Shown one piece after another: positions 7,540-56,329 of a stretch of 64,000 nt of DNA. The notes below the pieces were generated by a model. It had not been told where the DNA came from. It ran no database searches and was given only the letters and a program-made list of their open reading frames with translations. The stretch covers positions 51,861,740 through 51,925,739 of the forward strand of contig NC_092647.1 of the NCBI RefSeq assembly GCF_039555335.1, given 5' to 3'. Position 1 is the stretch's first letter, and each line of letters opens with the position of its first letter. The DNA comes from Amphiura filiformis (lineage: Eukaryota). Position numbers and translations under genes: made by a program.

Positions 7540-7665
7540 ATGTTCAACGGGTTGGAGTTCGTGGTAGAACCTGGCGCAACAGGTGATTTAGAAAATAAGG
7601 CAGCAGAAGTGAAGAAAAACATCACAAATAATGCAGGGGTGCTATCCCGTATTGTCACGGAAGAG
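7540..7665 (+). CDS. PARP4: PARP4-like exon 1, start of BRCT domain. The exon proper may begin at 7519, after the AG at 7517-7518.
   Basis: ATG at 7540. Translates MFNGLEFVVEPGATGDLENKAAEVKKNITNNAGVLSRIVTEE. Donor GTAAGA at 7666, phase 0. Matches the N-terminal BRCT of vertebrate PARP4. Confidence 0.7.
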
Positions 7666-8418
7666 GTAAGACTTTTAAACAAATTCAAAAAGATTAAAAT
7701 AAAAGTCAATTTTAGAAACTGACGGTCATTTTGATCTTGACTTTTATAGGGACCATCCAATACTTTACACGGGGGGGGGGAGGTTTTAATGAAACAGATT
7801 TGTTAGATTTTGAGGGGGGAATCCTAATGTTAAGTTTGAAATGGAAAACAAGGGGGGCAATCTGAAAATTTGGTGTGACGTACATGAGCCCTTTTCACCG
7901 CAAATGGCATTTTCCCAGCAAGCATATTGTTCATTCTCAAAAAGTCCAAAAAGGTTGACAGAAAATATGTCCCCCCTTGCCACCCCCCCCCCCCTTCGTA
8001 GCGCCGCCACTTGGAGTCAATTTTTGGCAATATGACCCATTTTTGTTCTTTTCAGCCACATTTTGACAATTTAGGTTGAATGCCTCCTCCCCCCTCGCAT
8101 TTCAAGCCGGATTGGCGCTAATGTTTTCCACCATATTTTATATCTTTTTTGTGGAAAACGGTGTTTTCACTGTTTTGAACTCCTAAATCATACATCATGT
8201 TATGTGAGTGGGTATGGGAAGGGAGTTACTTGCTTTAATTGATTTCAATAAATACTTCTTTTCACTCATTTGTTTTTGAGTTGTTTGTTTATTTGTGTGT
8301 TTTTAGTTTGTTTTTGGTTTTCTTTAAATTACCATTTTGGATCCCCCTGGCTAGGGATATTTATATGCCATTCAGAAATTGATTTTCATCATTACAATCA
8401 TTGTTTGTTTTTCTGCAG

Positions 8419-8620
8419 ACATCATTTGTCGTTGTATGTGACATTGTCAACATTGACCACTCAAGTCCACCGCTGGTCAAAGCTCAACAACACAACATCC
8501 CAGTGCTAAGTTCAGTGTACATTGACACATGTGTGAGATTAACACAGAAGCTTCCTCATGATGATTTTGTTGTGATTATCAAGACTGTTCAAGTAGAAGA
8601 GCATGCAGCACTACCTTCCA
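8419..8620 (+). CDS. PARP4: PARP4-like exon 2, BRCT domain
   Basis: Acceptor AG at 8417-8418, donor GTAAGT at 8621. TSFVVVCDIVNIDHSSPPLVKAQQHNIPVLSSVYIDTCVRLTQKL aligns to human PARP4 THIILDNADVL...HIANPDFIWKSIREKRLL. Ends in phase 1. Confidence 0.85.
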
Positions 8621-10023
8621 GTAAGTATATTTGACTTGTTTTTGACCTATACCATTAGTAAATACCCAGCAATGGCAAAACCTTTTGTACAGAAAACTTT
8701 TTTTTTAAATGGCAGGTTATAAAAGGGGGTCATTGATATACCAAAAGACCAAAAATGTTACCCATATTTTGCAGCATGTCCACATATGGTCATTTGTACT
8801 GAGAAAAAGATATCTGTGAAAAGTGGACTTTCTTCCCCAACTTCAGACCTTTTTTGACCAAAAAACCTTTTAAAAATCATTTTTTTGGTAAATTCTTACA
8901 TTTTTGGAACTTTTGTATACTTTTGCAAATTTAAGGTAAAAATTGCTGAGAGATCTAAAAGCACTATTTTGATTGGTTACTCAGAATTTAAGCTGTTGCG
9001 ATGTTCAAAAAACATTGAAAACGTCAAGTACATTGAATATTGTGACCCGCTCTAACATAATGAGCACAAAGTTTACAAATGACTTTTTGAGGTATGTCAT
9101 ATTTGAAATCTTAACTTCAAAGTTTTAAAATCATGTACCTGGTTGTAATTGTGTCCCCTTTATCTGTTAATTAATCAAGAAAGCAGGCGGCGGATGACAT
9201 GATCGAGCCGGCAACTTGTGAAACCGCCCGGCTGTATGGCATTTTCCATATACACAGTTAGTTTTGTGGGGTTCATTATCGAACCCCAACGGTTTTAGCT
9301 TGTATTTATATTATTTCTCAACATAGGCATACTTGTTTGTGATATTTCAAGCGGTTTAAAATTTATAAATCATCCCATTTAATGACACGGTTGACGATGA
9401 AAATTTACTGAATTTAGAGAATGCAATGCGGCCACCACCTGCAAGAAAGTATAAAGTGTTAGAACATTACTATTTAATTTTCAAATAGTGCAAGTTCTAA
9501 GCAGTGGCATGTGCAAGGGGGGCACATGCCCCCCCCCCACTTCTGATGTCACTTCCGAAACAAATGAATTCTTTTGATACCTGCCTGTAAAATGTTTTAA
9601 TCAGATAGTTGTATTTCATAGAATTGCAGTGACTCATGAATGATGACAATTAATAACTAAGGAAATATTCAATATATTGAGATATCTTGCCAAGTGTTTG
9701 TTAGAGTTTAACATACCTTTCAGACCTTTTGCAAAAATATAGATATTTTATTTTACAATAGCTGTTTGGAGTATGAAAAGTTAAAATATACTCTTTTATG
9801 TAAGTTTTTTATGTACAAATATTTTCAACAGCTGCCTTTTGTTGTTAAACTTTGTGGAATTTAAGATGTAAAATGTGTGCAGTATTCCTTTTCTTTATAA
9901 TGAATTGCGGCTTTATTTTGCACAGAAAAATATCCAGGTTGAATTTCATAATGCAGTGAATAAATAAAGTACAAATAAAGCCCCTTGAAAATGACTTAAA
10001 TGCTATAAAGTGCTGGTGGAGTG

Positions 10024-10306
10024 CTAAGGGACCGTTCACAAACACTTGTTAGGGGGCCTGATGCAAAAAGGGGGGCCCTGACAATTTCTGACCCTCCTGG
10101 GGGGGGGTTGAAAAAAATGACCACATATTTTCCTGGAAAAATTGAGTTTATATGCTTTTCTATGGGGTTGACCCATAATTTTCATGTTAAAAAGGGGGCC
10201 CTGAAATTTTTGAGGTCTGTAAAGGGTGGTGGCTCCAAAAAATTTCCATGATGAAAATATTTTGCATCAGGCCCCCCTTACAAGTGTTTGTGAACGGTCC
10301 CTAATT
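10024..10306. mobile_element. MITE with about 42-bp terminal inverted repeats
   Basis: agggaccgttcacaaacacttgttagggggcctgatgcaaaa at 10026-10067 is reverse-complemented at 10262-10304. Explains the ORFs at 9845-10251. Confidence 0.8.
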
Positions 10307-10495
10307 ACATGTGTAGGTTAAATATGTACAGTAACAGTATTGGTGTTACCGTTATATTTTGCAAAGGATCTTTTATAGTCCCCCCAAAAAGTTGTTTGAT
10401 TGTCATCCAACCGACCCTAATCTGAAAAATTTCTGGGAAAAGTTTTTTTTTCTTTTGGTCTTAGCATCATACTTATCTCAACTGCTTTGATACAG

Positions 10496-10550
10496 GTGAA
10501 TTGACTGATACCAAACCTCAGAAAACAGATTTACATCCAAGCAGAGTACA
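10496..10550 (+). CDS. PARP4: PARP4-like exon 3, a 55-bp micro-exon in the linker after BRCT
   Basis: Long polypyrimidine tract then CAG at 10493-10495. Perfect GTAAGT donor at 10551. Open in the single frame that joins the phase-1 end of exon 2 to the phase-2 start of exon 4. Encodes (S)ELTDTKPQKTDLHPSRV(Q), resembling human KPLDITPPPDQK. Confidence 0.6.
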
Positions 10551-11363: not shown

Positions 11364-11463
11364 AGTGTGGACCTGGGGTGATCCAAATTCACCACCATTT
11401 GCATTTAGTGAGACAAGTGAGACCTCCACAGGCTATGAACTGGTCAAAGGTGTTTTGCTCCAG
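11364..11463 (+). CDS. PARP4: PARP4-like exon 4
   Basis: Acceptor CAG at 11361-11363, donor GTAAGT at 11464. Encodes VWTWGDPNSPPFAFSETSETSTGYELVKGVLLQ, compare human DFEVAKYNTLEKVG. Ends in phase 0. Confidence 0.65.
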
Positions 11464-11477
11464 GTAAGTTGAATCAA

Positions 11478-11645: not shown

Positions 11646-13209
11646 TCTGATATATGCTAATGGCAGTGGAATAATTGTTGAAGTGTGCTGATAACTACAA
11701 CCTTGGCATGCTTAGATGAAGTGCACATTAAATCACCAGCATTTATTTTTGTATTTATAATGGTTGAATGAAATTTGCTGAAATAAGAGAATTTGAAAGT
11801 TTCTGCATTATTTTATGCATTTTGATGATAAAATTTTAGAAAAAAAAGGTATCATTGGGGAGCCAAACCTTTAAAAAAAAGTCATTCAGGTATATTCTTC
11901 AAAGGGAACTTAATGACAGGCACATTCCTGTCACCTCTCAAGTTGAGTATCCACCAGTAAGACAACACCCTCCTAGGCTTATGAAGCGGGGCTCGGGGGC
12001 TCAGCCCCCCTCAATAATTTTTGTGTGCGGGGGGGGCTCAAATACCCACTTGAGTTTCAGAAAAACCACATGAAAGGTTATCTTTTCCAACAACGGAATG
12101 GTGCCCCATTTTGTGTACTGCGGTGTCAATATGGTCTGTCTCATACATGTCTGTTTGTAAACATTTGTATAGTTGGAAACATTTATCAGATGTACTGTGA
12201 TTTTGAGCAAATGATGTTTTCCATCCTAGAACATGTAGCGATTTTAAGAAAGGCGGCAAATTTGAAATTGACATAAAGGCAAAATATGGAGCAAAAAACA
12301 ATAAAATACATAAGAAAATAGACATCACAAAACTTCATAACTTTAGAACTACAATGCTAGCCAAAATAGGTTGGAATGAAAAATAGAATGTGCACCTTGT
12401 AATGACCATATTTTCGTTATTTCTAGAGTGATGAAATGGCACTTTCTTGAGTGTCAAGTCTAAACATTACCCTCACCCCAATACCTCCCCTGCCCCACCA
12501 ATCAATGTTGGGTACTACTGAGCGCACATGAACAAAATGTCAGGATTCAACATTGATCGGGGGAACGGGGCTCATTTACAATACCGTACTAATTTCATTC
12601 CAACCCTTTTGTCCAGGGTTGTCTCTAAAACTACCGAAATTACATAATGACACATGTTTTATAGCTATAGTTTTTTATTCTTTGTCCGATTTACATGAAA
12701 ATTTACATCAAAATAAAAAATTAATTGTCTTTTCCTCAATGACAAAACCAAAATTGTAATAGTGTCACTAGTGTAAGGGAGCGGTCAATTTATGTACATG
12801 CAGCCTTTAATTTGAAGTTCATGCAATTCAACTAAAGTAGCTCATATAACGTCATATATTGCATTATAAGTGTTATACTTTCAAGAAATGTTCATTTTAC
12901 CTTTTACATGTAAATGAAATATCATAAATGTAATTCATGAAAGTATAATCTTAGAAACAGAAGATGAAAAACTGAAATAAATGTTTTTAAAAAAAAAAAA
13001 ATATACAAAATACATAGAAAATCATTATTTCGTCTTCAGTAGATAGTTAACATGTGTAGTATATTTTACAGGTTTTATAGCTATATTGTTCTTATTGTAA
13101 GTCTGTAGAAAGGAAAATTAAAATCAAATGTTCAGTACAAAAACGAAGCATTTAATTTAATTTTTATTCATAGGCAAAAGCAAATTAAAACAAAAGAAAT
13201 TTTAAAAAT

Positions 13210-13272
13210 GCGGAATTGAACCCAAGCCCTTCCGTTAACTGGCAGTCGCCTTATCCACTGAGCTATTGAGGC
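13210..13272 (-). other. tRNA-like sequence, non-canonical, probably a tRNA-derived repeat or pseudo-tRNA. Duplicate at 14576-14640.
   Basis: The reverse complement has TAGCTCAGTGG (A-box-like) and GGTTCAATTCC (B-box-like). The stems do not close into a canonical cloverleaf. Confidence 0.4.
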
Positions 13273-13567
13273 GTTGTAATTCTAAGTGCACTTTTGTACT
13301 AGAGATTCTTTATAAATGAATAAAAAGTGTTTTAAACTAATCCACTTGTTTTATGCAACAATAATTGGCTTATTGAATAGAGAACCACGGTATTCAGACC
13401 TTTTCTTCACAAATTAGATTCCAAAACTTGACATAAATAGAAAAATGCACGGTATGCAAGCCTGTAAACAGTATATGACATAGTATTAAAATCTTTATTG
13501 TGTCTGCATACCGTAAAACTCATACATTGATATGGTCTAAATTATCGCAAACAAATCGAGTAACATT

Positions 13568-13644
13568 AAATAGCTCCATTGGTAGAGCGCGTACCAGTTA
13601 AACGAGCAGATTTGACAGCGCGGGTTCGAATCCTGTATGGTCGC
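13568..13644 (+). other. tRNA-like sequence, non-canonical, homologous and inverted relative to 13210-13272. Duplicate at 14930-15005.
   Basis: TAGCTCCATTGGTAGAGCG D-arm and GGGTTCGAATCC T-arm. Shares the core ccagttaaMcg with its partner. The T-stem is not complementary. Confidence 0.4.
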
Positions 13645-15920
13645 TTTTTATTTTTATCTCGATATTTTATTTTTCCTTAGTATTTATTTATACAGAATAG
13701 ATTTCAGATTTGTGTTGATCTAAATAATGTTTTACAAGTTTGTAGACTTATTTTTTTGGCATTTAAAGTGATCAATTGTGTTTCTAAACAGGGCCAAAAA
13801 TAGGATATTAGGAATTTTAGTGACCAGTCCCTAAATATGACGGATTAGCTATTGTTACTTTTTGTGGTAAAGGATAATGATAAGAGCTGCTTAGCCTCCA
13901 AATTGCAGGTCCATATCTTATTTACTTTTCATTTTATGGCCAAAAACCAAAATTAGATGATTTTTTTCAACTTTTCAAATACATGTCTCTAAGGCTACCG
14001 AAATTACATAATGACACATGTTTTATAGCTATAGTTTTTTTATTCTTTGTCCGATTTACATGAAAATTTACATCAAAATAAAAAAATTAATTGTCTTTTC
14101 CTCAATGACAAAACCAAAATTGTAATAGTGTCACTAGTGTAAGGGAGCGGTCAATTTATGTACATGCAGCCTTTAATTTGAAGTTCATGCAATTCAACTA
14201 AAGTAGCTCATATAACGTCATATATTGCATTATAAGTGTTGTACGTCCAAGAAATGTTCATTTTACCCTTTACATGTAAATGAAATATCATAAATGTAAT
14301 TCATGAAAGTATAATCTTAGAAACAGAACATGAAAACTGAAATAAATGTTTTTTGAAGTTAAAAATATACAAAATACATAGAAAATCATTATTTAAGTCT
14401 TCAGTAGATAGTTAACATGTGTAGTATAGTTTACAGGTTTTATGGCTATGTTGTTCGTATCGTTAGGCTGTAGAAAGGAAAATTAAATTGTAGTGTTTAG
14501 TACAAAAACGAAACATTTAATTTAATTTTTATTCATAGGCAAAAGCAAATTAAAACAAAAGAAATTTTAAAAATGCCGGAATTGAACCCAAGCCCTTCCG
14601 TTAACTGGCAGTCGCCTTATCCACTGAGCTATTGAGGCGTTGTAATTCTCGTGCACTTTTGTACTAGAGATTCTTTATAAATGAATAAAAGTGTTTTAAA
14701 CTAATCCACTTGTTTTATGCAACAATAATTGGCTTATTGAATAGAGAACCACGGTATTCAGACCTTTTCTTCACAAATTAGATTCCAAAACTTGACATAA
14801 ATAGAAAAATGCACGGTATGCAAGCCTGTAAACAGTATATGACATAGTATTAAAATCTTTATTGTGTCTGCATACCGTAAAACTCATACATTGATATGGT
14901 CTAAATTATCGCAAACAAATCGAGTAACATTAAATAGCTCCATTGGTAGAGCGTACCAGTTAAACGAGCAGATTTGACAGCGGGTTCGAATCCTGTATGG
15001 TCGCTTTTTATTTTGATCTCGATATTTTATTTTTCCTTAGTATTTATTTATACAGAATAGATTTCAGATTTTGTTGATCTAAATAATGTTTTACAAGTTT
15101 GTAGACTTATTTTTTGGCATTTAAAGTGATCAATTGTGTTTCTAAACAGGGCCAAAAATAGGATATTAGGAATTTTAGTGACCAGTCCCTAAATATGACG
15201 GATTAGCTATTGTTACTTTTTGTGGTAAAGGATAATGATAAGAGCTGCTTAGCCTCCAAATTGCAGGTCCATATCTTATTTACTTTTCATTTTATGGCCA
15301 AAAAACCAAAATTAGATGATTTTTTTTCAACTTTTCAAATACAATGCTAGCCAAAATAGGTTGGAATGAAAAATAGAATGTGCACCTTGTAATGACCATA
15401 TTTTCGTTATTTCTAGAGTGATGAAATGGCACTTTCTTGAGTGTCAAGTCTAAACATTACCCTCACCCCAATACCTCCCCTGCCCCACCAATCAATGTTG
15501 GGTACTACTGAGCGCACATGAACAAAATGTCAGGATTCAACATTGATCGGGGGGAACGGGGGCTTATTTTGCAATACCGTACTAATTTCATTCCAACCCT
15601 TTTGTCCAGGGTTGTAGATATGCTAGACATTTGATGTTTTCAGTATACGATAGCTTAATGTTAATATAAAGTAATAACCAAAGTAACTTAGTTTTTAAAA
15701 ATGCCTCCTTTGGCCCCCATATTGCAGATTGTGTCACAATTTAATATACTTTAAAGTCAAATTGAATTGGACCGACAATCATCGTAAAATTTGGCCTGTT
15801 TGAAGGGGAAGTACAGTCTGAAAAGTGCTTATTAAATACTATTTTTTATTGACAATAACCTCATTAGACATCCAGTCAATATCCTAAGTGGTTAATCACT
15901 TCCATTTTTTTGATTCACAG

Positions 15921-16067
15921 AAACTAACTGCAGATATCCAGGAGTATTGTGTACTAGAGATTCACACATCAAGGTTGATAGGTCAAACCATACAGGAAAC
16001 CCACAAGGATGAGCCGCTATTGGCTTATAGGGTGTTCACACATCATGGAGTACTACAGGATGTTAAG
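15921..16067 (+). CDS. PARP4: PARP4-like exon 5
   Basis: Acceptor CAG at 15918-15920, donor GTATGT at 16068. KLTADIQEYCVLEIHTSRLIGQTIQETHKDEPLLAYRVFTHHGVLQDVK aligns to human VVVELQCSRDSRDCPFLISSHFLLDDG. Confidence 0.8.
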
Positions 16068-16934
16068 GTATGTGTAATGTGTTGCTATCGCAGGGTTGCT
16101 ATGCAGGGAATGATGATGCAAACAAGATAATGGGAAGCCTTAAAGTGACATTCACAGATTGTTATGCATAAATGTTATTTTATGTTGGCCCTACATGTAT
16201 ATCAAACATTTTAGGTTTCCTTAAACTTAAAAAATTAAGGACAAATCATTATAGCATTATGAAGTAAAAGTTAAAATATTCTAAAAGTTCCATCCCCCAA
16301 AATCAGTGCAAATTTAAGTAACCAATATTAAAAGTTCCTCTTATTCTGAAATGACAAAATAAACCTTCACTAGTTACTAGTCTAGTAGCATAAATGAATT
16401 CTTTACACACAATCTTTAGGATACTGGTTATACTTTCAGAGCGTTTCTACCCCAGGTTTCTACTGAGAGGGAGTATGAATGGCAGCTCCATTTGAATTTC
16501 ATACACCCTCTGAGAGAGATTCAACTTGAATCTTTCACAGAGTTTCAAATGGAGCTGCCTAATGTGCTCATTCCATTTGAAAATCATGGATTATTTTCCG
16601 ACGGGGGTGTGCGACTCCAGCTCTCGAACCCTTACCCATTTCCAAGGGTAATTTTACCAAAAATAGGGACTTATACCTAAGGATTTTCAGTTTCAGAATA
16701 TAAGGACCCATCTTAGCTTGAAAATAGTAAAAGCAACATGTTTTTCACACATAGCAAAGAAAATTTAAAAAGGAGACCCATGTCTAAGGATTATTTTCTT
16801 CAAAACATAGACATTTGTCTCAGGATTTTTCGTGGAAAACCTACCCATTTGGGCGGCACATAGGAAAGGGTTTGTACATGAGGTCCCGGGAGAAAGACAC
16901 TCACTATTTGCTTTTTTTCCATTCCATACCTCAG

Positions 16935-17090
16935 GATATCCATTGTGGCACCAAGGAATGTCGGTATACATCAACAGGTGCAGAAGCTGAACAGGTGTAT
17001 AGTTACCTGTATAACAGGTGTATCAATCAAGGATATCAAAGAACCACTGAGCACATGTCACGATGGATTGGTTCTCCTGTCTACAGAAAG
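16935..17090 (+). CDS. PARP4: PARP4-like exon 6
   Basis: Strong pyrimidine tract then AG at 16933-16934. Donor GTATGT at 17091. ...AEAEQVYSYLYNRCINQGYQRTTEHMSRWIGSPVYRK aligns to human ASEYFENYIEELKKQGFLLREH. Phase 0 at both ends. Confidence 0.8.
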
Positions 17091-18166
17091 GTATGTGTAT
17101 TGTCTATTGTAGTAGAGTGCCGTCTCCCAAGAGAGCCTTCACTGGGCTGGTCATGCAGTTCCATCTACAAGGCAGAAATCTACCAGAAATGCCCTGAGAT
17201 GAATCTTCATTTTAGCCTGGTCAATACCTTGATTTTGGGCTAAAATAGTGTACATTTGTAAATTGGCTTGGTAGAGACAAGATTTGAACTTGATTTTGGG
17301 TTAAGATTGCGTAAAATTTCACATTTTGTGAGTTTCACATGCAATTGTCCTGGTCAAACCAGGCATGATGCGGCCTATTAGAAAAGTTTTGTTTGCCTCT
17401 CACTGATAATTTACTGACACTGATATGCCATGCACTGATTGTCTCGAATTTATTTATTATTTACTGTGAGCAGATTATATTAGAACTGAATCTTTTATGA
17501 CTCACTAATTTTGCTGACAAAAAAAAAAATATGTGTAAAAAAGGTACGGTGTGATAGCAGACATTTTGAGAATGAATAGTTGAATTGTTTACTGAAAAGG
17601 GCATATTACTATCATCAAATTGATATTTTTGTTAATTTTGTAATTTATTGATCAACTTGTTGAGCAGTTTGAAATGATCTTGTAGCCATGTTTGGTTGTT
17701 TCTTTTCATACTTTCATGTTCAACTAACTTCTACAGGGCCCCAATCGCAACCGTTCTCTTAAACTTATTCTGTCAGAATCTCCCCAAATCGTATCAATTC
17801 TGTACATGGTAAATTATGATAATCGATGATCAGTGAATTCTCACTTATTACTCATGTGAGTTGGTGAGAATCAGTTTTGATTCATGTAAAGTGCAACAAA
17901 ATTGATTTCTGGCCTTGTTCTAGTTTTATGAATTTATTCAAAGTCAATTTTGTAGCAGGAAGTGGCATGGTTAATATGAGGTTGGATATCCTTGTTTGTG
18001 GATGCAACACAACATGTATGAGGTCGCATATCCTTGGAGAATGTTGCAATTGCAAGACTTAGGCCCAATTCACACTTTTTATTCAACATTGAATATATTT
18101 GATGCAATTATGTATAATTTGTTAATCAAAAGAGTGAAGTTCACTCTAAGAGTGAAATGTCCACTC

Positions 18167-18385: not shown

Positions 18386-18920
18386 ATTATCTAAGAGACA
18401 ACTCTTCTTGGAGTGGTCCTTTTTCTGGCTTTTTGAAGAGTAGGAGTGAAATTCACTCTTTTGGAATTAAAATTGCACTCTTTTTTGGAGTGCATAAATA
18501 CTCAATATGGGTGAACAGCCAGGAGTCCAGGCCTTTAACTGTTTTGACTTGGAAAAATAAATTAATGCTAGTGTCAGAGTGGTCCAGTTTTAATGACAGT
18601 GTATTGCACGATTCCAAACTTTGTTGTGAGAAAAAGAAAACTGTATTCTCTGTGTAAACTAAACACTTAAAAGTAATCAAAATTGATTGTCCCGGGGTTT
18701 TGTCAATATATTGACCAGGCCTATCACTAGTCAAGTATGATGATATAAAATTGGATGGTTTGAACCCAATACACAAATTTATTGGTCGAGCTATGAGTTT
18801 TAAAATATTGGACGAGGCGAAGTCCAATATTTTTAAACTCATAGTGAGACTCAATAAATTTTGCATTAGTGAAAAAACCATCAATTTTATCATTATTATG
18901 TTTTCAGAATCTTTTCTTGG

Positions 18921-19025
18921 TCAAAACATGACTTTTGGTCAAAAATGTGATATTTTTGGTCAAAAATGTGATTTTCGGTCAAAAATGTGATTTTCGGTCA
19001 AAAATGTGATTTTGGTCAAAAATGA
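18921..19025. repeat. Minisatellite (GGTCAAAAATGTGATTTTY)n, about 6 units
   Basis: Direct reading. Confidence 0.9.
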
Positions 19026-20648
19026 GAAAAAGTGTAAAAAACAAAATTTGGGGGGAAAAAGTGAGCCTATCCAACACAGTCCAAGTTTTGAGTCCAAGTG
19101 TTGATTATATTGGACTCTTCAACTCTGTACAAAGTATAGGAAAGAAGATTCTGAGAACATAATAATGATTATTGTTGGAATATAAGTTTGATAAAAATTC
19201 CCTTTAAAAGGGAAGGCCAGCGTCAATGCAGAAGAGGTCTTGTAAATAGTTTGGGTCACCGTGAAAGGCATTTTTAGGATCACGCTTACATCCATGTTAC
19301 ATGACAGTTCACCAAACCATCAATGGTGAGAACATGCACACTGAAACAGCAAAACACATTAACTCCTATAACTCCTGTCAACTCTTTAATTCATTACTCC
19401 AAATTGTTCTGTATTTTTGTCTTTACTGCTTTTTACCCATGCTTATTATAAAAATCAAGAAATACACTGCAGTTGTTAGTTAATTCGCTATGTTAACTCA
19501 ACTTACATGCACATTTTATTTTAAAATAATTTTATATTATTTCGCAATGTATAGTTTACTATAAAGTAGATAGTGGCAAGCACATGATAAAGGACTGATC
19601 ATTCACTACAATCTTCACTTTTAAACTGTATTTTTTGAATGTGTTGATTGTTAGTCCGAAACTCCTGCAAAGCTATGGACATGGCATCTTACCTACTCCA
19701 TTCTGTAGTCTGCATTGTGTGTTTTCTCAGTCTTCAATCATTTTGTTGAATGTAATTTTATGAATCAAATAAAAAGATAGAAATTGGCCTCACTTTAGTT
19801 ATGTGTCATTTTACAGTATTTATCATTTATAAAGTAAGACAATAATTTATTTATTTTCTATAAGTGCATGTCAAAATATGGGATATATTGTTCAATATTA
19901 TAGCTAGCCCTAAAAACTTTATTTTCAATCGGATTTTTCCGTTGAAAAGACAAAACTGATGTTAAAGATAGCAATAATATCATCAATAACATTTTGAGTC
20001 AATTTTATCCATAAAACGATACAGGATAGGATAGATAATTACTTTGACTTCAATGTGGTCCATATAATGAAGATTTTGATTCCACAACATTATTAGATCT
20101 GTTATCAACATATCAATTAACTGCACTCACAGGCAACCAAACATCATGCTATGCTCAATAGTCCACTGATATGACCTCGTGATCATTCCCCGCTTTGACC
20201 ATGTCATTTTTTTTGATATGCTGATTGCTGAACAAGTTTATGTTTATATGTGTAGGCCTAACCTATGATAACTTTTTAAGTCATAATTAATTCAAACATA
20301 ACTTTGGCAATACTCAATCGTTTTCGTTCGTTGAAGCGGCAAAACATACTTTCTTTTCCTTGCAAATCGAATTAGCAGACATCAAAAACATTTCCACCAC
20401 GAGAAGTAAAAAAATAATTCATACCAATAGAAGAAGGCTATAATCTTAGCTAATCTTTAGTGTACACAAACCCCATCTCAGAATTAGGTACCAGCGCCCT
20501 ATGCGCTGGCGAAAAGCTTTTAAATTATAACGGTTCAACTGTGTACACTTGTCACTCACATCATTTCAAATGTTAGAATTCTGCTTTCATCATCCTTTTT
20601 TCGATTTTTATGCTGATGGAAGATTACTTGTTATTTATTTGATAACAG

Positions 20649-40420: not shown

Positions 40421-40437
40421 GATGCATTTTATTGAAG

Positions 40438-43106: not shown

Positions 43107-43759
43107 GTAGGCCCACAATATTCATTAGGCCTAAAAAATTGTTTGATTGGCGTAATTAACATACAAAAAAAATTAGGTAATTTTTTTTTTTTTTTTTTTC
43201 AATTTTAAAAAAATTTGCAAAAGAATAAGAAAAAAGTCCAGGGTCGGGCCTATTTTTAAGGTCGGTCGGGTTACGCCAATCAAACAATTTTGTTAGGCCT
43301 TATGAAATTAAATAAAAATTAGGGATAGCTTAATGACTAAAAGCTTTATCTATTATTATACCGATATTATTGTACCGTAACATCAGTGAAAATCAGACTC
43401 TTCAAAGCCTGAAGCTGTTGAAAGTATTCTGTAAATGTATTGTCAGAAACTTGAACCATTACTAAGAAAATGGAAGCTAATAGAGGACTGACTCGATGGA
43501 TACTACACACCAACTGTTGGATCGGGTATTAATTATGTCTGCTAGTGAGACCACATTCCAAACACTGATCTCTATGGCATTATTCTCCTTGTGTCATCAC
43601 TAATCAGACAACATTAGTGCTGGTCACTGCATTCTCCCAATTGACCAACCTGTCTGCTGACTGATTTTCTGGACTCCTCCTGATAGGTAACTAAATAGAG
43701 GCAGAATGCCTCTTCAATACCCTGACACCATCAAGAGTGGTATATTAACCCTAACAGCC

Positions 43760-44045
43760 CTGAATACTACAAAATACTACTTGATATATGCGCTGTTCGT
43801 GCATGCATCCCACGTGGTGTGATGACGCAATCGCCCTAAGTGATATATAGGCACGGTTTCGCTGGCCAGCGAAGCCCAAGACCCGTGGCAAGGTGTCGCC
43901 GACCGAGTGCTTGGCATGCGAGGGGTCTCGGGTTCGAATCCCACCCAGAGCAAACAACTTCTTTCCTTCTTTTCTCTCTTTATTCTTTCCTTCTTTCCCT
44001 TCCCGTCGCCAAAAAGCCCCTAGGCGGTTAGGGTTAACCTGCAAC
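43760..44045 (+). mobile_element. SINE-like repeat, family 2, second copy
   Basis: Matches 40120-40420. Confidence 0.75.
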
Positions 44046-44793: not shown

Positions 44794-44884
44794 TGCACCA
44801 TCTGAAAGTTGTGTGGTAGGAATATAAATTTTGTGTTTGGATCAAATTTATCACATGGATATAATTTTATTTATTGTTTTTAAG

Positions 44885-44998
44885 GGAGAAGATTTGTCTA
44901 CAAATACAGGACCAAGTGTATCTGATTTAGTAGCAATGGCAGGTGTTGATGATATGCCATCTTTGGATTGGCAAGATGAAGTTACTCCTCAAGTAGAG
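44885..44998 (+). CDS. PARP4: PARP4-like exon 25
   Basis: Acceptor AG at 44883-44884, donor GTAGGT at 44999. GEDLSTNTGPSVSDLVAMAGVDDMPSLDWQDEVTPQVE aligns to human NESPFPDIPKVSELIAKEDVDFLPYMSWQGEPQEAV. Confidence 0.8.
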
Positions 44999-45339: not shown

Positions 45340-47700
45340 AGCTGACTAATTAAAGTGAGCCTTCCTAGAGAGTTCTTTGAGGTCAATGTTGTCAAGTTGA
45401 GATCTGAAATACTTCAGGTTTTCTGTTGTCTTCACGTCAGCGGGTAAGAGGTTCCATTCCGGAATGGTGTATGGGTAGAGTGCATGTTTATAACAGTCTT
45501 TGTTGACATTGATTCTCTTGAGATTATTTGGGTGATTGTTTCTGGTTGATCTGCCAATTTGGTCTTTAGGTGTGAACTTGCGGTTGGTAATATTTGATGG
45601 TGCCAATGAGTTGAATTCTTTGAAGATGATGGTGAGACGAGCTTTTTGGCGTCTTGTAGCCAGGTTTTCCCATTTTAGTTCATGGAGGAGATGAGTAACA
45701 CTGGTTTCACGCTTGTAGGCATTACAGACAAAGCGTGCCGCTCTGCGCTGTACCTTTTCAACTGTTTCAATGTGGGTGTGTTTGGGGGTCCCAAATACTG
45801 CTGCAGTACTCAAGTTTGGGACGAACTAATGTCTTATAGGCAGTGGCTTTGGTCTTTTCGTCAGCAGCATCTCAGGTTTCTCTTCAGAAGGCCAAGGATC
45901 TTATTTGCCCGGCAGTAACTTGATTGATGTGCTTGGACCAAGAAAGATCTTTTGACAATTCCACTCCTAAGTAAGGATGGTGATCAGTTTCTTGTAAGAT
46001 GGAATTTCCCATTTTGTATTGTTGGATGACTGGTTTCTTCTTGTGTGACATATGCATGGTGAAGCATTTTGAAGTATTGAAGCTCATTTGCCAAGTTTGT
46101 TCCCAGTTGCACAATGAATCAATATCTTTTGTAAAATGTCACAATCACTTTGGGATGAAACTTGCGATAGAGTATGCAATCATCCGCAAATAAGCGTACT
46201 TGAGAGTTTACAGAGTCTGGGAGGTCGTTAATGTACATGAGGAACAATAACGGGCCTAATACTGTTCCTTGGGGAACTCCAGAAGTAACGGGGGAATTGG
46301 CAGACTTTTCACCATCTATGATGACTGTCTGCTGACGTTGTGTGAGGAAACTATCAATCCAGTCTTTAATGTTATTTCTGATGCCGATATGATGTAACTT
46401 AGCGAGTAAGCGTTTGTGAGGGACCATGTCGAACGCTTTGCTGAAATCCATTATGATGAGATCAACTTGACTTCTTCTATCAAGAATTTGCGCAAGGTCT
46501 TCAGTCAACGCTGCCAGCTGAGTCTCGCATGATCTTTCTTTGCGGAAACCGTGTTGGAGGTCAGTAAGCAGATGGTACTTGTCGACATGGTCCATAATAT
46601 GACGATGAATAATGTGTTCTAACAATTTGCAGGATATACAGGTCAACGAGACTGGCCTGTAATTTGAAGGACAGGACCTGTCTCCCTTCTTATAAATGGG
46701 GGACACGTTTGCGTTGAGCCAATCCGTTGGTAACATACCGCAGTCGATAGACTTTTGAAAAATCTTCTGAAGTATCGGAGCAATAGATACTGCGCACTCC
46801 TTCAAAACTCTCGCGGGTATATTATCTGGTCCTGAAGCTTTGTTTGTCTTGAGGTTCAGGAGAAGTTTCTCAACTCCAGGCGTAGTAATATTTACAGGGG
46901 GCAAATCAGGAACTGAGCCATTGCTCATATCAGGAATACTTGACAGATCTTCCTTTGTAAAGACGGAACAGAATTGTTTATTTAATGCATCAGCTTTGTC
47001 CTTGGCACTAGAGATGGTACGCCCAGCGACCTCTAGGCCAGAGATACCAAACACCTCTTGTTTCTTAGTCTTTATAAAATTCCAGAATGGCTTTGTGTTC
47101 TCGGATTGAAGGCTAGCACCTATCACCTCCCTGACATAAGACTTATACTGCTTTCTGATCTTGCGGTCAGTACGACGCCTAATTCGCTTAAACTTTTCCC
47201 AAAGAGCTTTGCTACTTCTTTTACGAGCTTTGTTATAAAGTCGTTGTTTCTTACGAATTTCTCTCTTGGTTCCATCTGTGATCCAAGGCTGACTTAGTCT
47301 AGATGAACTCAGTTTGGAAGGAATATGCTGGTTTATGGCTGATTGCAGAGAATCTTTAAAGGATATCCACAGAGAATCAATGTCTAATTCTGCTACTAAC
47401 TCATCTGAGAGCTGGTCATTGAAAGCTTCCATCTCTTTAATGATTTCAGCATAATCGCCCTTGTTAAAGAGAAAAATCTTTCTCCTTGGGCGCTTGACAA
47501 ATTTGGGCTTAATACTTGCGTCGATGACAACGACATCATGGTCACTAATACCAGCTTGCACACTAACTTTGTTCACAAAAGATGGGCAATTTGTAAAACA
47601 GAGGTCCAAGATGCTGTTGTTCCTAGTTGGTTTGTCAACAATTTGCGCAAGATGCAAATGTAGTGAGCAGAAAATTTTGCAATTTTAAACATTTCTGGTT
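45340..47700 (-). mobile_element. Degenerate, 5'-truncated LINE ORF2 (end of endonuclease, reverse transcriptase, C-terminal region) in intron 25, nested inside another repeat
   Basis: Minus ORF 46119-47657 has GISDHDVV (end of endonuclease) and reverse-transcriptase motifs up to SGVPQGTVLGPLLF...FADD. ORFs 45884-46114 and 45346-45813 continue the reverse transcriptase and C-terminal region in other frames, so it is frameshifted. Flanking sequences 45100-45340 and 47690-47850 are related direct repeats (gccaaaaRttgc...cctgccaaaattg.t.cccc). Confidence 0.8.
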
Positions 47701-48017: not shown

Positions 48018-48167
48018 GTGAACCCAGAGAAGCAGATAGCCAATCTTTTGCGTACAGCTAATACAGCTACTGAGACTCTGTCATTTGATGCAGCAGAGAG
48101 GTATTATGAGGATGCACACAAAGTGGCAGAGGAGAAACTCAAACCAGACAGCTCACTTGTACTAGAG
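48018..48167 (+). CDS. PARP4: PARP4-like exon 26, poorly conserved linker region
   Basis: Acceptor AG at 48016-48017, donor GTAAGT at 48168. Phase 0 to phase 0. A 50-codon ORF, VNPEKQIANLLRTANTATETLSFDAAERYYEDAHKVAEEKLKPDSSLVLE. Phase-compatible with flanking exons but lacks clear homology. Confidence 0.55.
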
Positions 48168-48649: not shown

Positions 48650-48773
48650 GTAGCTGACAAGCTATCCAAGTTTTACTTCCGGGTCAGACGCAGTGCCAAG
48701 AAAGCATTTTCTGTCATTGATAAGGTCTATAAAAAGCAACAAGAAACTCCCAGACCAGTACCGTCACAGCAAG
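48650..48773 (+). CDS. PARP4: PARP4-like exon 27
   Basis: Acceptor CAG at 48647-48649, donor AG|GTAAGT at 48774. Only open frame from the acceptor. Encodes VADKLSKFYFRVRRSAKKAFSVIDKVYKKQQETPRPVPSQQ. Phase consistent. Confidence 0.55.
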
Positions 48774-49107: not shown

Positions 49108-49171
49108 TGTACAAATCAGAGGAGCTAGAGCACTTGGATCAATTGGAAAAGGCAGCTGAGTGGGCTCAACT
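49108..49171 (+). CDS. PARP4: PARP4-like exon 28
   Basis: Acceptor AG at 49106-49107, donor GTAAGT at 49172. Encodes (V)YKSEELEHLDQLEKAAEWAQ(L). Phase 1 in, phase 2 out, consistent with neighbours. Confidence 0.55.
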
Positions 49172-50135: not shown

Positions 50136-50233
50136 GTGTAAATCTCTTGAAGAAAGCTTTCAACCCATTGACATTGGACCGCCTGTAAGAGATGAATCAA
50201 CAACTCCTTATGAAGAAGAAATACATGAAGAAG
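50136..50233 (+). CDS. PARP4: PARP4-like exon 29. Its downstream intron appears to be GC-AG.
   Basis: Acceptor CAG at 50133-50135. Encodes (L)CKSLEESFQPIDIGPPVRDESTTPYEEEIHEE(G). Only the GAAG|GCAAGT donor at 50234 leaves the phase-1 overhang needed by the strong acceptor at 50615-50617 of exon 30. The alternative GT donor at 50238 breaks phase. Confidence 0.55.
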
Positions 50234-50617: not shown

Positions 50618-52272
50618 GTGATGAAAGTGCAGAGGTCTTACTACCTGTCCTTGAGCTTGAATATGATAACCAACCACTTGACAGGATAGTGGATTTGCCA
50701 CCAATGAGACTGAGTGCACAAATGCGTGCAGATAGCATTGCAGAAGAGCGCATAGAGGTCTTGAAAGAAGATATGTTAGAAGGAGATGACCTTGAATATG
50801 ACACAGTCGAGCTTGTTCCCATCATGCCTTGTTTAGGTTCAGCGCGTGCAGAGAGCCCTGAAACAGTGGAAGAAATTCATTATGCAGATTATGAAGAAGA
50901 TGTTAAGCCGGTTACTGTGATTGCAAAAAGTGCACGTGCAGAGTCTCCAAAAATGAGGAAGAGATATGAAGGAGATAGCGATGAGGATACCTATGCTTAT
51001 GGAGATTTACCACCGAGCTTGCCGTTTTTGTCAAGACAGATGACTATGGGATCTGAAGATGATTATGAGGAGCTGGCTGGATCAGTACCACCATCCACTA
51101 TTGAAAGAGACATAGGGGGCATCGCAGGTGGTAGTGGTGATAGTTTTGATGATTATGAAGCACTACCAATAGGCCCAAAATCCTCTGCTGAAAGAAGTAT
51201 CGGTGGTATCGCAGGAGGGGGTGATGATGATGGATTCATCCCCTATGAGGACTTACCCCCAAGCTCGCCAGTATTGATGAGACAAAGTACAATGGAATCT
51301 GAGGATGATTATGAGTGGGTGGCAGGTGTATCACCACCACCACCCTCTGCTAAAGAAAGGATGGGTGGCATTGCAGGTGGTTCCTATGATGATTATGAAG
51401 CACTACCAATAGGCCTACCAAAGGCAGCAGGACTACCACCTCCTGCACCTGCGGCACCCCCGCCAGTTGCACTTGGTGCTGCAGCACCCCCACCAGTACC
51501 TGGTGCAGCACCACCACTCCCCTCACCACCTGCACCTGTTGCACGAGCACCCCAGCAATCACCAGGTGCAGTACCACCACCCCCACCACCTGCACCTGAT
51601 GCAGCAGTACCACCACCACCACCACCACCACCATCATCTCGTAGAGCACCACCTGCACCTGGTGGACCACCATTTCACAAAATGGCAAACATGCCGTCAT
51701 TACCTGCATCTGAAAAATCAAAACCCACCCTCCTGAGTGAAATAAGACAAGGTGCTGCACTTAAGTCAGTTGAATTGAAAATTCCTTCTAAACAAGCTGT
51801 GGCGGAATTACCATTGAATAGCATATTACTACGCCATCAATTTTCTGTTGATGCAGATGAAGATGATTATGAAGATGATGAATGGGATGATGATTGGAGA
51901 GAAGTGCCTGAAAAAGAAAGATCAGAGAGAGAATCAGATGAAAAACAGATCAGTGATGATGCTATTGAAAACGCTGAAGAACGAACTCGCTCTCTTGATG
52001 ATCTGCTACAAAAATCAGAAGAACTGTCAAAGAAGGGTAGTGTGGCATTTTCCAGCAAAGCCAAGTTGAAAAAGAAACGTGTAGCCCTGGGAATTCGTTT
52101 TCCTGCTCATGATGGGAAGCATGAGAAAGAAGAAAAGAAGAAGAAAGCTGTAAAAGAGAAGATGAAAGTAGCAGAGCCAGTGGAACCACTGACAGATATA
52201 CCAAGTGCTAGGAGGAGTAAGCCACAACTGAATGCATCAAACATTGAGAAGCTACTGAAACTGAGAGAACAG
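50618..52272 (+). CDS. PARP4: PARP4-like exon 30, a giant exon with acidic tandem repeats, a polyproline tract and a WH2-like motif
   Basis: Acceptor CAG at 50615-50617 with a long pyrimidine tract. Uninterrupted 551-codon frame (part of the 605-aa ORF 50506..52323). Donor CAG|GTGAGT at 52273. Strong codon and composition structure. Phase matches exon 31, which has clear PARP4 C-terminal homology. Confidence 0.7.
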
Positions 52273-53644: not shown

Positions 53645-53741
53645 GGTTACAAATGGCGCTTTTCAAAAGATTTTGACAAGATCTTAGGCATCAACAGCCA
53701 GATTTGTACTGCTACTATCCAGGATACTAAGCTTGCATGGG
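53645..53741 (+). CDS. PARP4: PARP4-like exon 31, start of the major-vault-protein-interaction-like C-terminal region
   Basis: Acceptor CAG at 53642-53644, donor G|GTAAGT at 53742. GYKWRFSKDFDKILGINSQICTATIQDTKLAW aligns to human DGFWKLTPELGLILNLNTNGLHSFLKQKGI. Confidence 0.75.
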
Positions 53742-54184
53742 GTAAGTACTAGAGTACCGAAGTGTGACGTCATAAAATTTTCTTTTTTTGCATTTCAGCA
53801 TTTTCATGACCATATTTCAGTAGAACATGATGAAACATCCATGGTCCAAATGACTGTTTGGAACCAGGCCAATTTACACTGATTTCAATGGGGTTAATTA
53901 GGTATTCATGCGGCCATATCTCGGGGCCCTCATGATCCGATTCCCACCAAATTTGGACTGTGGATGTTTTTCATCATGCTCCACCGATACATGGTATTCA
54001 AAACGCTGAAAAAAGTTTTCTGTGACGTCATCACTTCGGTACTCTATTTAGCTTTTCATCTCTCTGCAATCAGTGACAGAGTTGGAATTTTTTTCAGGGG
54101 GCCTCAATAAGCTGAAATTTGGCAATTTTTGCTAAAAATGTTGGAATTTTCTGTTATTTTTGTTCTGACTGGGCAACCAAGGGG

Positions 54185-55262
54185 TGTCAAACCAAGATTT
54201 GGGGACTGATACACACTTAAAACTACGGGGTCAAAAATGACCCAAACGGGGTCATTTTTGACCCCAGCATAGTTATCAACTAAACACCATACCACTAACG
54301 GGGTCATTTTGACCCCATTGGTCGGGATCATTGCAATGACTACGTATTTGGGTCAAATAGTAACCCCATTGGGGTCAAAATATTACCACATTTCGGGGTC
54401 AAATGAAATGACCCCTTCAAAAGGGTTGCCTTATTGGGTTACTTAATGACCTCATTTCGGGGTCAAATGAAATGACCCATTTGAAAGGGTTGTTTTATAG
54501 GGTTACTCAATAACCACATTTAGGGGTTGTTTGGATTTTTTTAGTAGGCCTATGATCATGCTGGTCCCACCAGGACATAAGTGTGTTTCTGCACAGAGAA
54601 AGCATTACATAAACAGCAAACTGCGTCTGTGTATCACCCTCACACACAGTCAGTCATCGCCTCTCACCGCTGACGTATTATAAGCTTACATGATATAAGC
54701 TTATAACAACTGCAGCCAAGACACCAGCCACGACAGCATGAAATTGGAATGAATCTGCGTGCATAGACAAGGGTCTATCGGCATCCTTGCAGTCTCACTT
54801 TTCAACTAACTTTTCATATTCCATCATGCAGACAAGCACACGACAATCCGCTGAGCTGCACAATCAGAACAAATATGGCGCTGATGTGACCACGTGAGCC
54901 GATGCACACCGTGTGTGCAAATAGTTCCGAAATGCAAGTCATTATAAAGTTGACAAATTGGGTAACTTCGGTCAAAAAATTAGTTTTATTTATTAATCAA
55001 TAAACATTAATTGCAGCTCATGTTTAAACTCATTTATGAATTGAGATTTTCAAAGCGGAAGATTGAAACTGATATCAATGCGCGACGGTATCGGCAAAAT
55101 GACCACTAAGTTTTTGACCACGTTCGTCGTGGCTAAAATGACCTCGTGAGTGTGGTCAAATTAAAACAGTACAACCCCCTTGAAGGGTCAAAACAACCCC
55201 AAACGTGGTCAATTCAAAATGACCACGGAAAATATAACCCCGTAGTTTTTAGTGTGTAGTCA
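54185..55262. mobile_element. Foldback element of about 1.1 kb with terminal inverted repeats and palindromic sub-repeats GGGGTCA(A)nTGACCCC
   Basis: cacacttaaaactacgggg at 54218 is reverse-complemented as ccccgtagtttttagtgtgtag at 55240. Tandem sub-units of about 68 bp at 54393-54530. Confidence 0.65.
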
Positions 55263-56071
55263 TAAAGATGAAGGTGGGGTCATTTGGTGAAAAATTGTAT
55301 AGACCAAAGACTGGCGAGAGCTGGCCAGGGGATGGGGGTAAACTCAAATTCAGCATTAATTAAAATGCCTCACCCTGTTAAAACAATTTGAAACTAGTGA
55401 AGAAAAGTGGACACAACATTTTAAAAAGCTTCAGTGCCATGGTTTCCTCTCTTGATCCAAAGGCTAGCAGTAAATGTGTTCTCTTGATTTATTGGGAGAG
55501 GTCTTCATTTCCCTGATCTTCAGTGAAATCTTTCTCTTTTTTTTCTTTCTACATAGACCAGCATGTCTATGCTTTTTAGCTTGGCTTGAACATTTTGTTT
55601 GCGCCTGGTCGCATCAGGACACAAGTACTATGTGATTATTAAAGAAACATACAAAGAACAAGTTATATAGCAAAACCTCCTAACTAGGGTCTTAGCTAGA
55701 AATTGAGGGTTGCCCATCATTTGAATAAAATTGCCTGTCCGAATTTGACCTTTAAAACATTTACCAGATGTCTATAGCCCATTTGGGGTTCAAAGAGTTC
55801 AAATATGTGCTGATATGGCCTTCTCCTACAAATCTGGTCTACTAAAAAAGTCAGTTAGCTTCTCAAAATTTATAATATAGCATCTGTCAAAGGCATTAAT
55901 TTTGCCCGTCTCAGGAGCAAACTGGCCGTCTTAAATGACGGCCAGACGGGTGGCTAGCTAAGACCCTGCTCCTAACTCATTTTCGTGTATTTATGTTGTT
56001 ATGATTGGGTTTTTTTACAAAATGTCAAATTCTTTAATTTAACATCTTTTTCTTTGTATATCGATGAACAG

Positions 56072-56329
56072 AGGCGTCACAAGGACAACTTGATGATATC
56101 CACATACTTATTGCTGTGATGCTAGCTGTGTTGCATCTGAGAACGTTCTTGGCTTCACAACCTAAGAAGAAATCTAAGAAACAAACAACACTCTGTGAGC
56201 ATGTACAGAAAGCAATCGATGCAGCAATGGAAATGCTTGAGCATTTTATGCAAGATCTTGATTTGAGAAATATGCCAGAAAAATCTGGTTTGGGTGTGGA
56301 TTGGTGGGAGATAGGAAACAAGCTATTTG
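56072..56329 (+). CDS. PARP4: PARP4-like exon 32, C-terminal region. The terminal exon and stop codon were not located.
   Basis: Acceptor CAG at 56069-56071, donor G|GTAATG at 56330. ...QLDDIHILIAVMLAVLHLRTFLASQ...CEHVQKAIDAAMEML...KSGLGVDWWEIGNKLF aligns to human LLDLIATMLVLQFIRTRLEKEG...IPWAFEAIKQASEWV...PRLELGNDWDSATKQLLG. Ends in phase 1, so at least one more coding exon follows. Confidence 0.8.

Follow-up and report, generated by a model that had tools for sequence, protein, structure and literature searches.

Does the stretch of Amphiura filiformis DNA considered here (64,000 nucleotides of contig NC_092647.1, assembly GCF_039555335.1, positions 51,861,740 to 51,925,739 of the forward strand; hereafter 'the window', in whose own coordinates all positions below are given) contain one complete gene for PARP4, the enzyme known as vault PARP, and does its product end in the domain through which human PARP4 contacts the major vault protein (MVP)? 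PARP4-type ADP-ribosyltransferases are already known from nearly all animals. An original prediction, made from the letters of the sequence, had answered yes to the first part and held that the C-terminal region resembles that domain. Our analysis indicates that a single, intact protein-coding gene very probably lies in the window: a member of the PARP4 clade (clade 5 PARPs) that spans about 48.8 kb, is split into 32 exons and has a product of about 2072 amino acids; the evidence for this is given first, followed by that bearing on the C-terminal end.

Reconstruction of the gene

Using a concatenate of the obvious forward-strand coding pieces as query, we retrieved 186 homologous proteins at E ≤ 1e-10, the best of which were PARP4 or PARP4-like proteins of Lottia, Candidula, Saccostrea, Acropora, Oculina and many fish (44–51% identity); the top matches come from molluscs. 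Comparison of 60 homologues with the window by tblastn mapped 18 colinear exons on the forward strand, in a series from 20646 to 43118, plus a weak match at 44882–44989. For each intron, donor and acceptor pairs were enumerated and the joined peptide was scored against twelve homologues. For the core introns one canonical AG...GT pair stood out clearly in each case, the one exception being a GC donor (ATG|GCAAGT) at 41512. A codon-usage and splice-site model was trained on the homology-supported exons and then used to search for phase-consistent exon chains. At the 3' end the model chose the chain 44885–44998, 48018–48167, 48650–48773, 50618–52272, 53645–53741 and 56072–56343, to which 49108–49171 and 50136–50233 were added once GC donors were permitted. 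In the linker between the BRCT and WGR-like regions, a phase-consistent chain leads from 8592 through 10465–10550 and 11364–11463 to 15921.

The rebuilt forward-strand model comprises 32 exons and 31 introns, with a coding sequence of 6219 nt encoding 2072 amino acids, zero internal stops and one terminal stop. It runs from an ATG at 7540, preceded four codons upstream by an in-frame TAA, to a TAA at 56341–56343, and an AATAAA lies downstream of the stop codon at 56607. All acceptors and donors are AG and GT apart from two GC donors, and the phases of all 31 introns are mutually consistent, giving a single open frame of 2072 codons. The original prediction had described a single PARP4-type multi-exon gene on this strand, about 49 kb long, with at least 32 exons and 31 introns of mutually consistent phase; the independent rebuild arrived at the same exon count and reproduced the consistent phases in its own frame. 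The predicted span of 7540–56329 held at its start, with a start codon exactly at 7540, and fell short at its end, since the last exon runs 14 nt further to the stop codon.

As an observation in its own right, two GC-AG introns occur in this one gene (41512, ATG|GCAAGT; 50234, AAG|GCAAGT), and the second GC donor is kept in a related species described below.

Domains of the N-terminal and central regions

Domains were called with Pfam on the spliced protein, comparing bit scores with the gathering score (GA) of each family. BRCT (24.4 bits, GA 21.3), PARP_reg (35.2 bits, GA 26.8), PARP (90.8 bits, GA 26.7), VIT (129.7 bits, GA 26.5), VWA_3 (73.9 bits, GA 27) and VWA (38.9 bits, GA 23.8) were all found. 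This profile check, which the original prediction had itself proposed, thus recovered BRCT, PARP_reg, PARP, VIT and vWA in order, each above its gathering score. The accompanying claim of a 'full' domain order is borne out for BRCT, PARP, VIT and vWA by Pfam, and does not extend to the C-terminal MVP-interaction domain, which was not detectable.

Exon 1 (7540–7665, donor GAG|GTAAGA) carries the start codon and the first half of the BRCT domain and is colinear with the N-termini of homologues; exon 2 (8419–8592, acceptor TTTTTCTGCAG|) carries the second half. A hidden Markov model (HMM) that we built from eleven PARP4 BRCT regions gave the exon 1 and exon 2 open reading frames (ORFs) as its two best matches in the window, in the correct order, with exon 2 the top match (E 0.003). 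The exon 2 donor (CAA|GTAGAA) scores 3.5 (8593) versus 7.8 for a stronger alternative (8621), and only the 8592 end yields a phase-consistent chain. With the long form of exon 2, BRCT_2 scores 29.5 bits (GA 27.3), compared with 23.7 for the short form.

Exon 3 (10465–10550) is a linker exon of low confidence, placed by splice scores and phase compatibility and with a coding score of 1.5 bits. Exon 4 (11364–11463, with a GTAAGT donor scoring 12.6) would supply further linker and the first strand of the WGR-like region; including it lets the match to the PARP4 inter-domain HMM run on for a further 16 positions, with a gain of 5 bits (YELVKGVLLQK versus fevaKysvlqk). A look-alike of that first strand just after exon 2 (8648) was rejected, as it would require a 29-nt intron. 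An HMM of the interval between BRCT and catalytic domain matches the ORFs at 15888–16127 and 16788–17240. The first of these contains exon 5 (15921–16067), which has tblastn and HMM matches to the part of the Oculina and vertebrate PARP4 proteins between BRCT and the helical domain (HD), and the second contains exon 6 (16935–17090), also of the WGR-like region, whose ORF alone matches our own HMM at E 3.4e-4. When spliced, the WGR-like region and the start of the HD together score 92 bits against our HMM of PARP4 homologues.

The HD (PARP_reg) begins in exon 7 (20649–20786; tblastn matches from 13 homologues, junction scored), continues in exon 8 (21692–21868; tblastn E 2.4e-11), which holds FFDIIPH (residues 340–346), and ends in exon 9 (23391–23551; tblastn matches from 29 homologues). 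The catalytic ADP-ribosyltransferase (ART) domain occupies the four exons that follow. Exon 10 (27290–27427; tblastn) holds the catalytic His455 within LLLHCS (residues 452–457); exon 11 (29026–29124; tblastn, 65–72% identity) holds Tyr495 within GSGLYFGD (491–498); exon 12 (30075–30258; tblastn E 1e-13) lies between; and exon 13 (31223–31382) holds Glu565 within EDEFVVY (563–569). In the alignment to human PARP4 (PDB 8sx1) the three motifs pair as llHcs/llHgs, gsglYfgd/gsgiYfsd and edEfvvy/ddEfvvy. The intact His-Tyr-Glu triad that had been predicted is therefore present, with all three residues aligned to those of human PARP4, and the strings quoted in its support are all found in the translation. 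The HD-ART region as a whole matches human PARP4 (8sx1) at E 2.2e-68 in phmmer, versus only about 1e-16 for PARP1, PARP2 and PARP3.

The VIT domain begins, after a linker, in exon 14 (32415–32554; tblastn, junction scored), and continues through exon 15 (33612–33830; tblastn E 5e-33) to exon 16 (34621–34832; tblastn E 8e-18, junction re-scored). Its identity is 65% to primate PARP4 and 72–75% to fish and invertebrate homologues, lower than the figure of about 80% given previously. Exons 17 (35255–35336; tblastn matches from 23 homologues, acceptor TTACTTCCAG|) and 18 (35733–35867; tblastn, junction scored) encode a region similar to that of ITIH proteins. The vWA domain follows in exons 19 (36942–37128; tblastn E 1e-13), 20 (37315–37579; tblastn E 7e-18) and 21 (38275–38374; tblastn E 2e-8), with a complete metal-ion-dependent adhesion site (MIDAS): DLSNS (D-x-S-x-S; residues 903–907, as quoted in the original prediction) in exon 19 and both the Thr of GSTEAW and the Asp of VSDGH in exon 20. 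The post-vWA ITIH-like region is encoded by exons 22 (40438–40617; tblastn E 2e-11) and 23 (41416–41511; placed by junction scoring, and ending in the GC donor ATG|GCAAGT), both aligned to human PARP4, and by exon 24 (42924–43106; tblastn E 6e-17). Exon 25 (44885–44998; tblastn E 0.019 to Acropora) contains the motif EDVDFLPYMSW and is the last with homology to human PARP4, reaching human residue 1219. From the end of the ART domain to exon 25, the protein matches human residues 582–1219 at E 7.5e-143 (phmmer).

Taken by its domains, the N-terminal third would form a PARP1-homology module (BRCT, WGR-like region, helical regulatory domain and an ART fold with an NAD+-binding triad), and the middle an ITIH-like module (VIT, vWA with MIDAS, and post-vWA region) homologous to human PARP4 up to residue 1219. 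The prediction of an active ADP-ribosyltransferase, inferred from the retained triad, is reasonable. Human PARP4 itself has the H-Y-E triad and is a mono-ADP-ribosylating enzyme that is without a functional acceptor site, and its BRCT domain binds RNA (PMC10711553). Because human PARP4 has H-Y-E yet only mono-ADP-ribosylates, mono-ADP-ribosylation is the safest activity to predict here; the enzyme would most likely modify itself and its partners as human PARP4 does. The BRCT domain would probably provide a surface for binding nucleic acid (RNA or DNA), and the VIT-vWA block a metal-dependent protein-binding surface.

Several points weigh against the reading of the locus as one intact PARP4 gene. 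The exon junctions are predictions from sequence. Support for exon 3 and for the donor of exon 2 is weak, and the detail of the linker between the BRCT and WGR-like regions may be wrong. What links exons 25, 26, 27 and 28 to one another is limited to strand, phase consistency, strong splice sites and codon usage. The N-terminal 238 residues gave no pairwise match to human PARP4 in phmmer, and the Pfam profiles that support BRCT lie a few bits above threshold; the BRCT and WGR-like assignments are thus supported by profiles and by a cnidarian homologue, not by similarity to the human protein. Finally, where the human H-G-S motif has its Gly the present protein has Cys, although many homologues have Ser at this position.

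Exons of the C-terminal tail

The last ~820 residues, encoded by exons 26–32, form a lineage-specific and fast-evolving tail. Exons 26 (48018–48167; coding score 23.3, acceptor 11.1, donor 12.3) and 27 (48650–48773; placed by the splice, codon and phase model) would encode partial 14-3-3-like helices. Exon 28 (49108–49171) was found in the splice and phase chain, and exon 29 (50136–50233) ends in the second GC donor (AAG|GCAAGT). Exon 30 (50618–52272, 1655 nt; acceptor GATACAG|, donor CAG|GTGAGT) has a coding score of 201 bits, its codon preferences being those of the core exons. Exon 31 (53645–53741), called de novo, starts a conserved C-terminal helical domain that exon 32 (56072–56343) completes together with the stop codon.

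Beyond exon 25 there is, at the level of sequence, no detectable likeness to any PARP4: the concatenated tail gave no match at E ≤ 0.01 in the protein collection, nor did BLASTP of the tail against 120 PARP4 homologues find any. Exact look-ups of the 605-residue ORF that contains exon 30 gave no match, and a search with the vWA exon 20 alone returned no candidate. An exhaustive HMMER search of the last 322 residues against 1.84 billion representative proteins returned two relatives only, P0121 (73 residues, 59% identity, E 2.9e-19, matching exon 32) and P0122 (an 834-residue ORF, 42% identity, E 4.6e-18). These tail relatives sit on contigs of metagenome assemblies, L001/L002 (ENA ERZ23486772; GCA_013332995.1 JAAUXV010000423.1) and L003 (ENA ERZ25070167 ctg362643). 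The contigs are evidently animal host DNA on which a prokaryotic gene finder listed exons as separate 'proteins'.

Within L003, an 11-kb locus on a 34-kb contig, one strand carries orthologues of exons 28, 29, 30, 31 and 32 in the same order. Kept between the two species are the 64-nt and 97-nt exon lengths, the phases, the acceptor and donor positions and the GC donor of exon 29. The exon 28 orthologue (L003 1957–2022) is 64% identical with the same 64-nt length and splice sites; that of exon 29 keeps both its acceptor and its GC donor; that of exon 31 has the same 97-nt length, phase and AG/GT sites at 54% identity; and the acceptor of exon 32 is retained. Exon 30 has orthologous long ORFs in both P0122 and L003 (6843–8546), with the donor position conserved. 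We take exons 28–32 to be real because a related species has them in the same order and with the same lengths, phases and splice sites, and the terminal exon at 56072–56343 is further supported because the stop codon of the L003 ORF falls three codons earlier than that of the window. A putative exon 27 orthologue in L003 (549–575) proved spurious.

The break in homology after exon 25 raises the question of whether two adjacent genes have been joined: a shorter PARP4 ending after exon 25, and a downstream gene for a disordered protein with WH2- and SNARE-like segments and its own helical end, made up of exons 26–32 or starting at an ATG at 50506. Exons 26–32 have no sequence homology to any PARP4, and in Lottia and Candidula the protein models stop close to where exon 25 would end. 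If the donor at 44999 were read through, a stop would follow at 45017, with an ATTAAA downstream of it at 45349; the in-frame ATG at 50506 opens a 605-residue ORF; and the covered part of the relative's contigs shows only exons 28–32 together. Against this, strong acceptors and donors give exons 26, 27, 28 and 29 the form of internal exons, neither any of these exons nor the spliced start of exon 30 is opened by an ATG, and from exon 25 (phase 0) to exon 30 the phases follow on without a mismatch. The best chain uses the acceptor at 50617, and exon 30 is not a first exon because the splice sites of exons 28 and 29 are conserved upstream of the big exon in L003. The PARP4-like proteins of Acropora and oyster also extend well past the EDVD motif, and PARP4-like proteins with a C-terminal 14-3-3 domain have been described (PMC4245714). 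We therefore regard two genes as improbable.

We find it scarcely credible that the locus is a decaying pseudogene, or a mosaic made in assembly out of transposable elements and fragments of PARP-like and ITIH-like genes. Reverse-transcriptase fragments do lie in its introns, as do a tandem duplication and decayed exon 12 copies (see below), and one donor, that of exon 2, is weak; but one frame without a stop runs through all 32 exons (6219 nt), the splice sites are canonical, the catalytic and MIDAS residues are retained, and the tail exons are under purifying constraint, having the same lengths and phases and 54–79% identity in a relative whose introns have diverged.

Motifs within the tail

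In a single PARP4 gene with these exons, the tail would start with a degenerate 14-3-3-like piece, continue with a long exon of disordered sequence that carries short linear motifs, and finish in a helical end domain of about 130 residues. The first of these, from exons 26 and 27, scores 23.1 bits (E 6.1e-5) with the Pfam 14-3-3 profile, which is below the GA (33.2), and covers profile positions 135–204 of 223; 14-3-3 gamma is likewise a weak PDB match to the tail (E 0.3).

Exon 30 encodes disordered sequence with acidic repeats, a poly-proline tract, a WH2-like motif, an R-SNARE-like motif and a lysine-rich stretch, and an alignment of this exon from three species shows islands of conservation within divergent, acidic and proline-rich sequence. 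The poly-proline/WH2-like and R-SNARE-like motifs lie at about residues 1740–1880 (window positions 51740–51800 and 51880–52010). Following the poly-proline tract, the WH2-like sequence KPTLLSEIRQGAALKSV is one such island, partly conserved in the three species. It scores 12.3 bits against Pfam WH2 (GA 23.1, E 0.15) and 15.2 bits in P0122 (E 0.017), and the WH2 repeats of N-WASP are the best PDB match of the tail (E 0.26). The R-SNARE-like heptad segment ERTRSLDDLLQKSEELSKKGSVAFSSKAKLKKK, about 90 residues past the WH2-like motif, is a conservation island that scores 13.5 bits against Pfam Synaptobrevin (GA 26.4, E 0.064; P0122 E 0.037). Its score against VAMP2 was reached by 15 of 2000 shuffles, and there is no transmembrane anchor. 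Because the 14-3-3-, WH2- and SNARE-like segments all score below their family thresholds, we do not class them as family members. The end of exon 30 is strongly conserved (IPxARRSKxxLxxSxIEKLLxL).

Perina et al. (2014, PMC4245714) describe PARP4-like proteins to which a 14-3-3 domain (in lancelet, sea urchin and unicellular relatives) or an actin or actin-binding domain has been appended. The likeness to the present gene lies in the 14-3-3-like stretch after the VIT-vWA block and in the WH2-like motif of the tail. The difference is that here the 14-3-3 match is partial and the WH2 sequence a short motif, not a domain, with both sub-threshold. In the partial oyster protein P0004 (Saccostrea cucullata, PARP4-like), residues 682–771 match Synaptobrevin (38 bits) and the first ~50 residues of Actin (34 bits), both above threshold; this extension is either a gene-model chimera or a real case of domain accretion.

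The gene might be a '14-3-3-appended' PARP4-like paralogue, neither a strict orthologue of vertebrate vault PARP nor a component of vaults. We hold this to be possible and worth keeping in view, if somewhat doubtful. The partial 14-3-3 match after the ITIH-like region would fit it, as would the undetectable MVP-interaction domain, the independent duplications of PARP4 reported in some invertebrates (PMC4245714) and the published finding that vertebrates alone conserve the MVP residues in contact with PARP4 (PMC12280208). The 14-3-3 match is, however, under the Pfam cut-off, and BRCT, a putative WGR-like region, HD, ART, VIT and vWA are all present, in an arrangement that parallels human PARP4 as far as residue 1219. 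A single PARP4 is the rule in most animals (PMC4245714), and one window cannot reveal a second PARP4 gene.

The MVP-interaction domain and vault docking

The original prediction had also held that the C-terminal region resembles the MVP-interaction domain of human PARP4 (MINT, or MVPID). Neither sequence nor profile tests found significant similarity. In phmmer searches of the PDB (which includes full-length human PARP4) with the 803-residue tail or with its last 130 residues, human PARP4 was absent at E ≤ 10. Our own HMM of fish and mammal MINT domains gave no significant match in the window (E 39); in Smith-Waterman and global shuffle tests against MINT the window sequence stayed at z ≤ 1.2 and the relative's sequence reached about 3; and hhalign of the C-terminal domain with MINT returned a match probability of 0.7%. 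PF26156 and PF26166 are precomputed matches on PARP4 homologues, PF26156 marking the MVP-interaction domain on those of fish; the Pfam set that we scanned is without either family, and a control protein (P0006) likewise gives no PF26156 match in it. Two AlphaFold2 models of the C-terminal domain were of low confidence, and fold searches with that domain were uninformative because the models are poor.

The C-terminal domain is helical and stands at the position of MINT, and the relative keeps unchanged a KKSKK loop that falls between predicted helices 4 and 5. The human MINT region that corresponds to this loop is a basic, MVP-contacting surface (PMC12280208). The same study found the MVP residues that bind PARP4 to be conserved only in vertebrates (PMC12280208), with which an unrecognisable MINT in this species agrees. 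Since none of the tests run detects a likeness of the C-terminus to the MVP-interaction domain, the predicted resemblance is unsupported, though still conceivable, and the label 'vault PARP' is an extrapolation for this gene.

The tail sits where vertebrate PARP4 has its disordered linker and MINT, and presumably sets the localisation of the enzyme. One reading, which we consider unlikely, is that the PARP4 of this lineage is not docked to vaults and that its tail targets the enzyme to actin or to the membrane-trafficking machinery instead. If the tail motifs work, actin or membrane targeting would fit the view that residence of PARP4 in vaults is a vertebrate acquisition. The gene, with its catalytic and ITIH-like modules conserved and its vault-docking domain not recognisable, bears on the question of whether PARP4 was a vault component before vertebrates.

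Comparison with known proteins

Human PARP4 (UniProt Q9UKK3; PDB 8sx1, 9bw6 and 11jf) has the same order of BRCT, WGR-like (putative in the present protein), HD, ART, VIT, vWA and post-vWA regions and the same H-Y-E triad. From the HD as far as human residue 1219 the two proteins align colinearly, and the human protein likewise continues with a long disordered stretch and a small all-helical C-terminal domain. The two differ in that human residues 1220–1724, including MINT/MVPID (1562/1570–1724), have no detectable match here. The human tail measures about 500 residues, compared with about 820 here with 14-3-3-like, poly-proline/WH2-like and SNARE-like segments. The BRCT and WGR regions are too diverged for a pairwise match, and human His-Gly-Ser is replaced by His-Cys-Ser.

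None of the invertebrate PARP4-like proteins (Lottia LOTGIDRAFT_119348, Candidula, Saccostrea cucullata, Acropora digitifera and Oculina) exceeds about 50% identity to the present protein overall, with 72–75% in the VIT domain. The Oculina protein has the BRCT and WGR-like N-terminus in common with it, and the Saccostrea cucullata protein also has a long acidic, proline-rich tail with a SNARE-like segment, but the tails of these proteins do not align with that of the window gene. The VWA5A and ITIH heavy-chain proteins have the VIT and vWA (ITIH-like) core in common with it, ITIH4 and ITIH1 being the next PDB matches, and are without the BRCT-WGR-HD-ART module present here. VWA5A has been reported with an MVPID-like helical end domain (PMC10450202). 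By these comparisons the gene is an ordinary further member of the known PARP4 family, whose tail without a detectable vault-docking domain is mildly unusual. Its value is modest and lies in a clean and complete invertebrate PARP4 gene model.

Introns, repeats and flanking sequence

The gene covers 76% of the window and does not 'fill' it as had been stated; no other host gene was found in the flanks. The DNA has the composition of AT-rich eukaryotic sequence (GC 0.32–0.43). Except for a few that resemble transposons, the 64 kb contain no long ORFs of bacterial type, and Rfam and ARAGORN tRNA scans of the whole window were empty.

The 3' half of exon 12 recurs in intron 12 (30259–31222) as three partial and decayed copies in tandem (30321–30358, 30418–30504 and 30593–30679), with 61–82% identity and a spacing of about 170 bp. 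As mutually exclusive or alternative exons these copies were rejected: their acceptor scores are negative and their frames broken, and we regard them as pseudo-exons.

Introns 9 and 25 contain reverse-transcriptase ORFs, at 24207–25748 on the forward strand and at 46119–47657 and 45346–45813 on the reverse strand (RVT_1, 79 and 103 bits), which are fragments of inserted non-long-terminal-repeat retrotransposons. Intron 4 (12339–15560) carries a tandem duplication of about 1.36 kb whose two copies are 89–100% identical, flanked by a 232-nt direct repeat (12339–12570 and 15329–15560). Within the intron 4 repeat, a tRNA-like GGTTCGAATCC box occurs at 13620–13711 and 14980–15071, where ARAGORN and Rfam are silent. 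An interspersed repeat of about 240 nt is present in two copies (40129–40365 and 43753–43990; 86–91% identity) that translate as WHARGLGFESHPEQTTS-type peptides. The interspersed repeat and the elements with the tRNA-like box may be akin to short interspersed nuclear elements.

Downstream of the PARP4 gene, a short reverse-strand ORF (58495–58650) bears the Tc1/mariner transposase signature ...DLNPIEHLWDQL.... The 5' flank and introns also contain an (ATTT)38 microsatellite and several minisatellites with units of 19–60 bp (404–555, 21126–21299 and 18917–19041).

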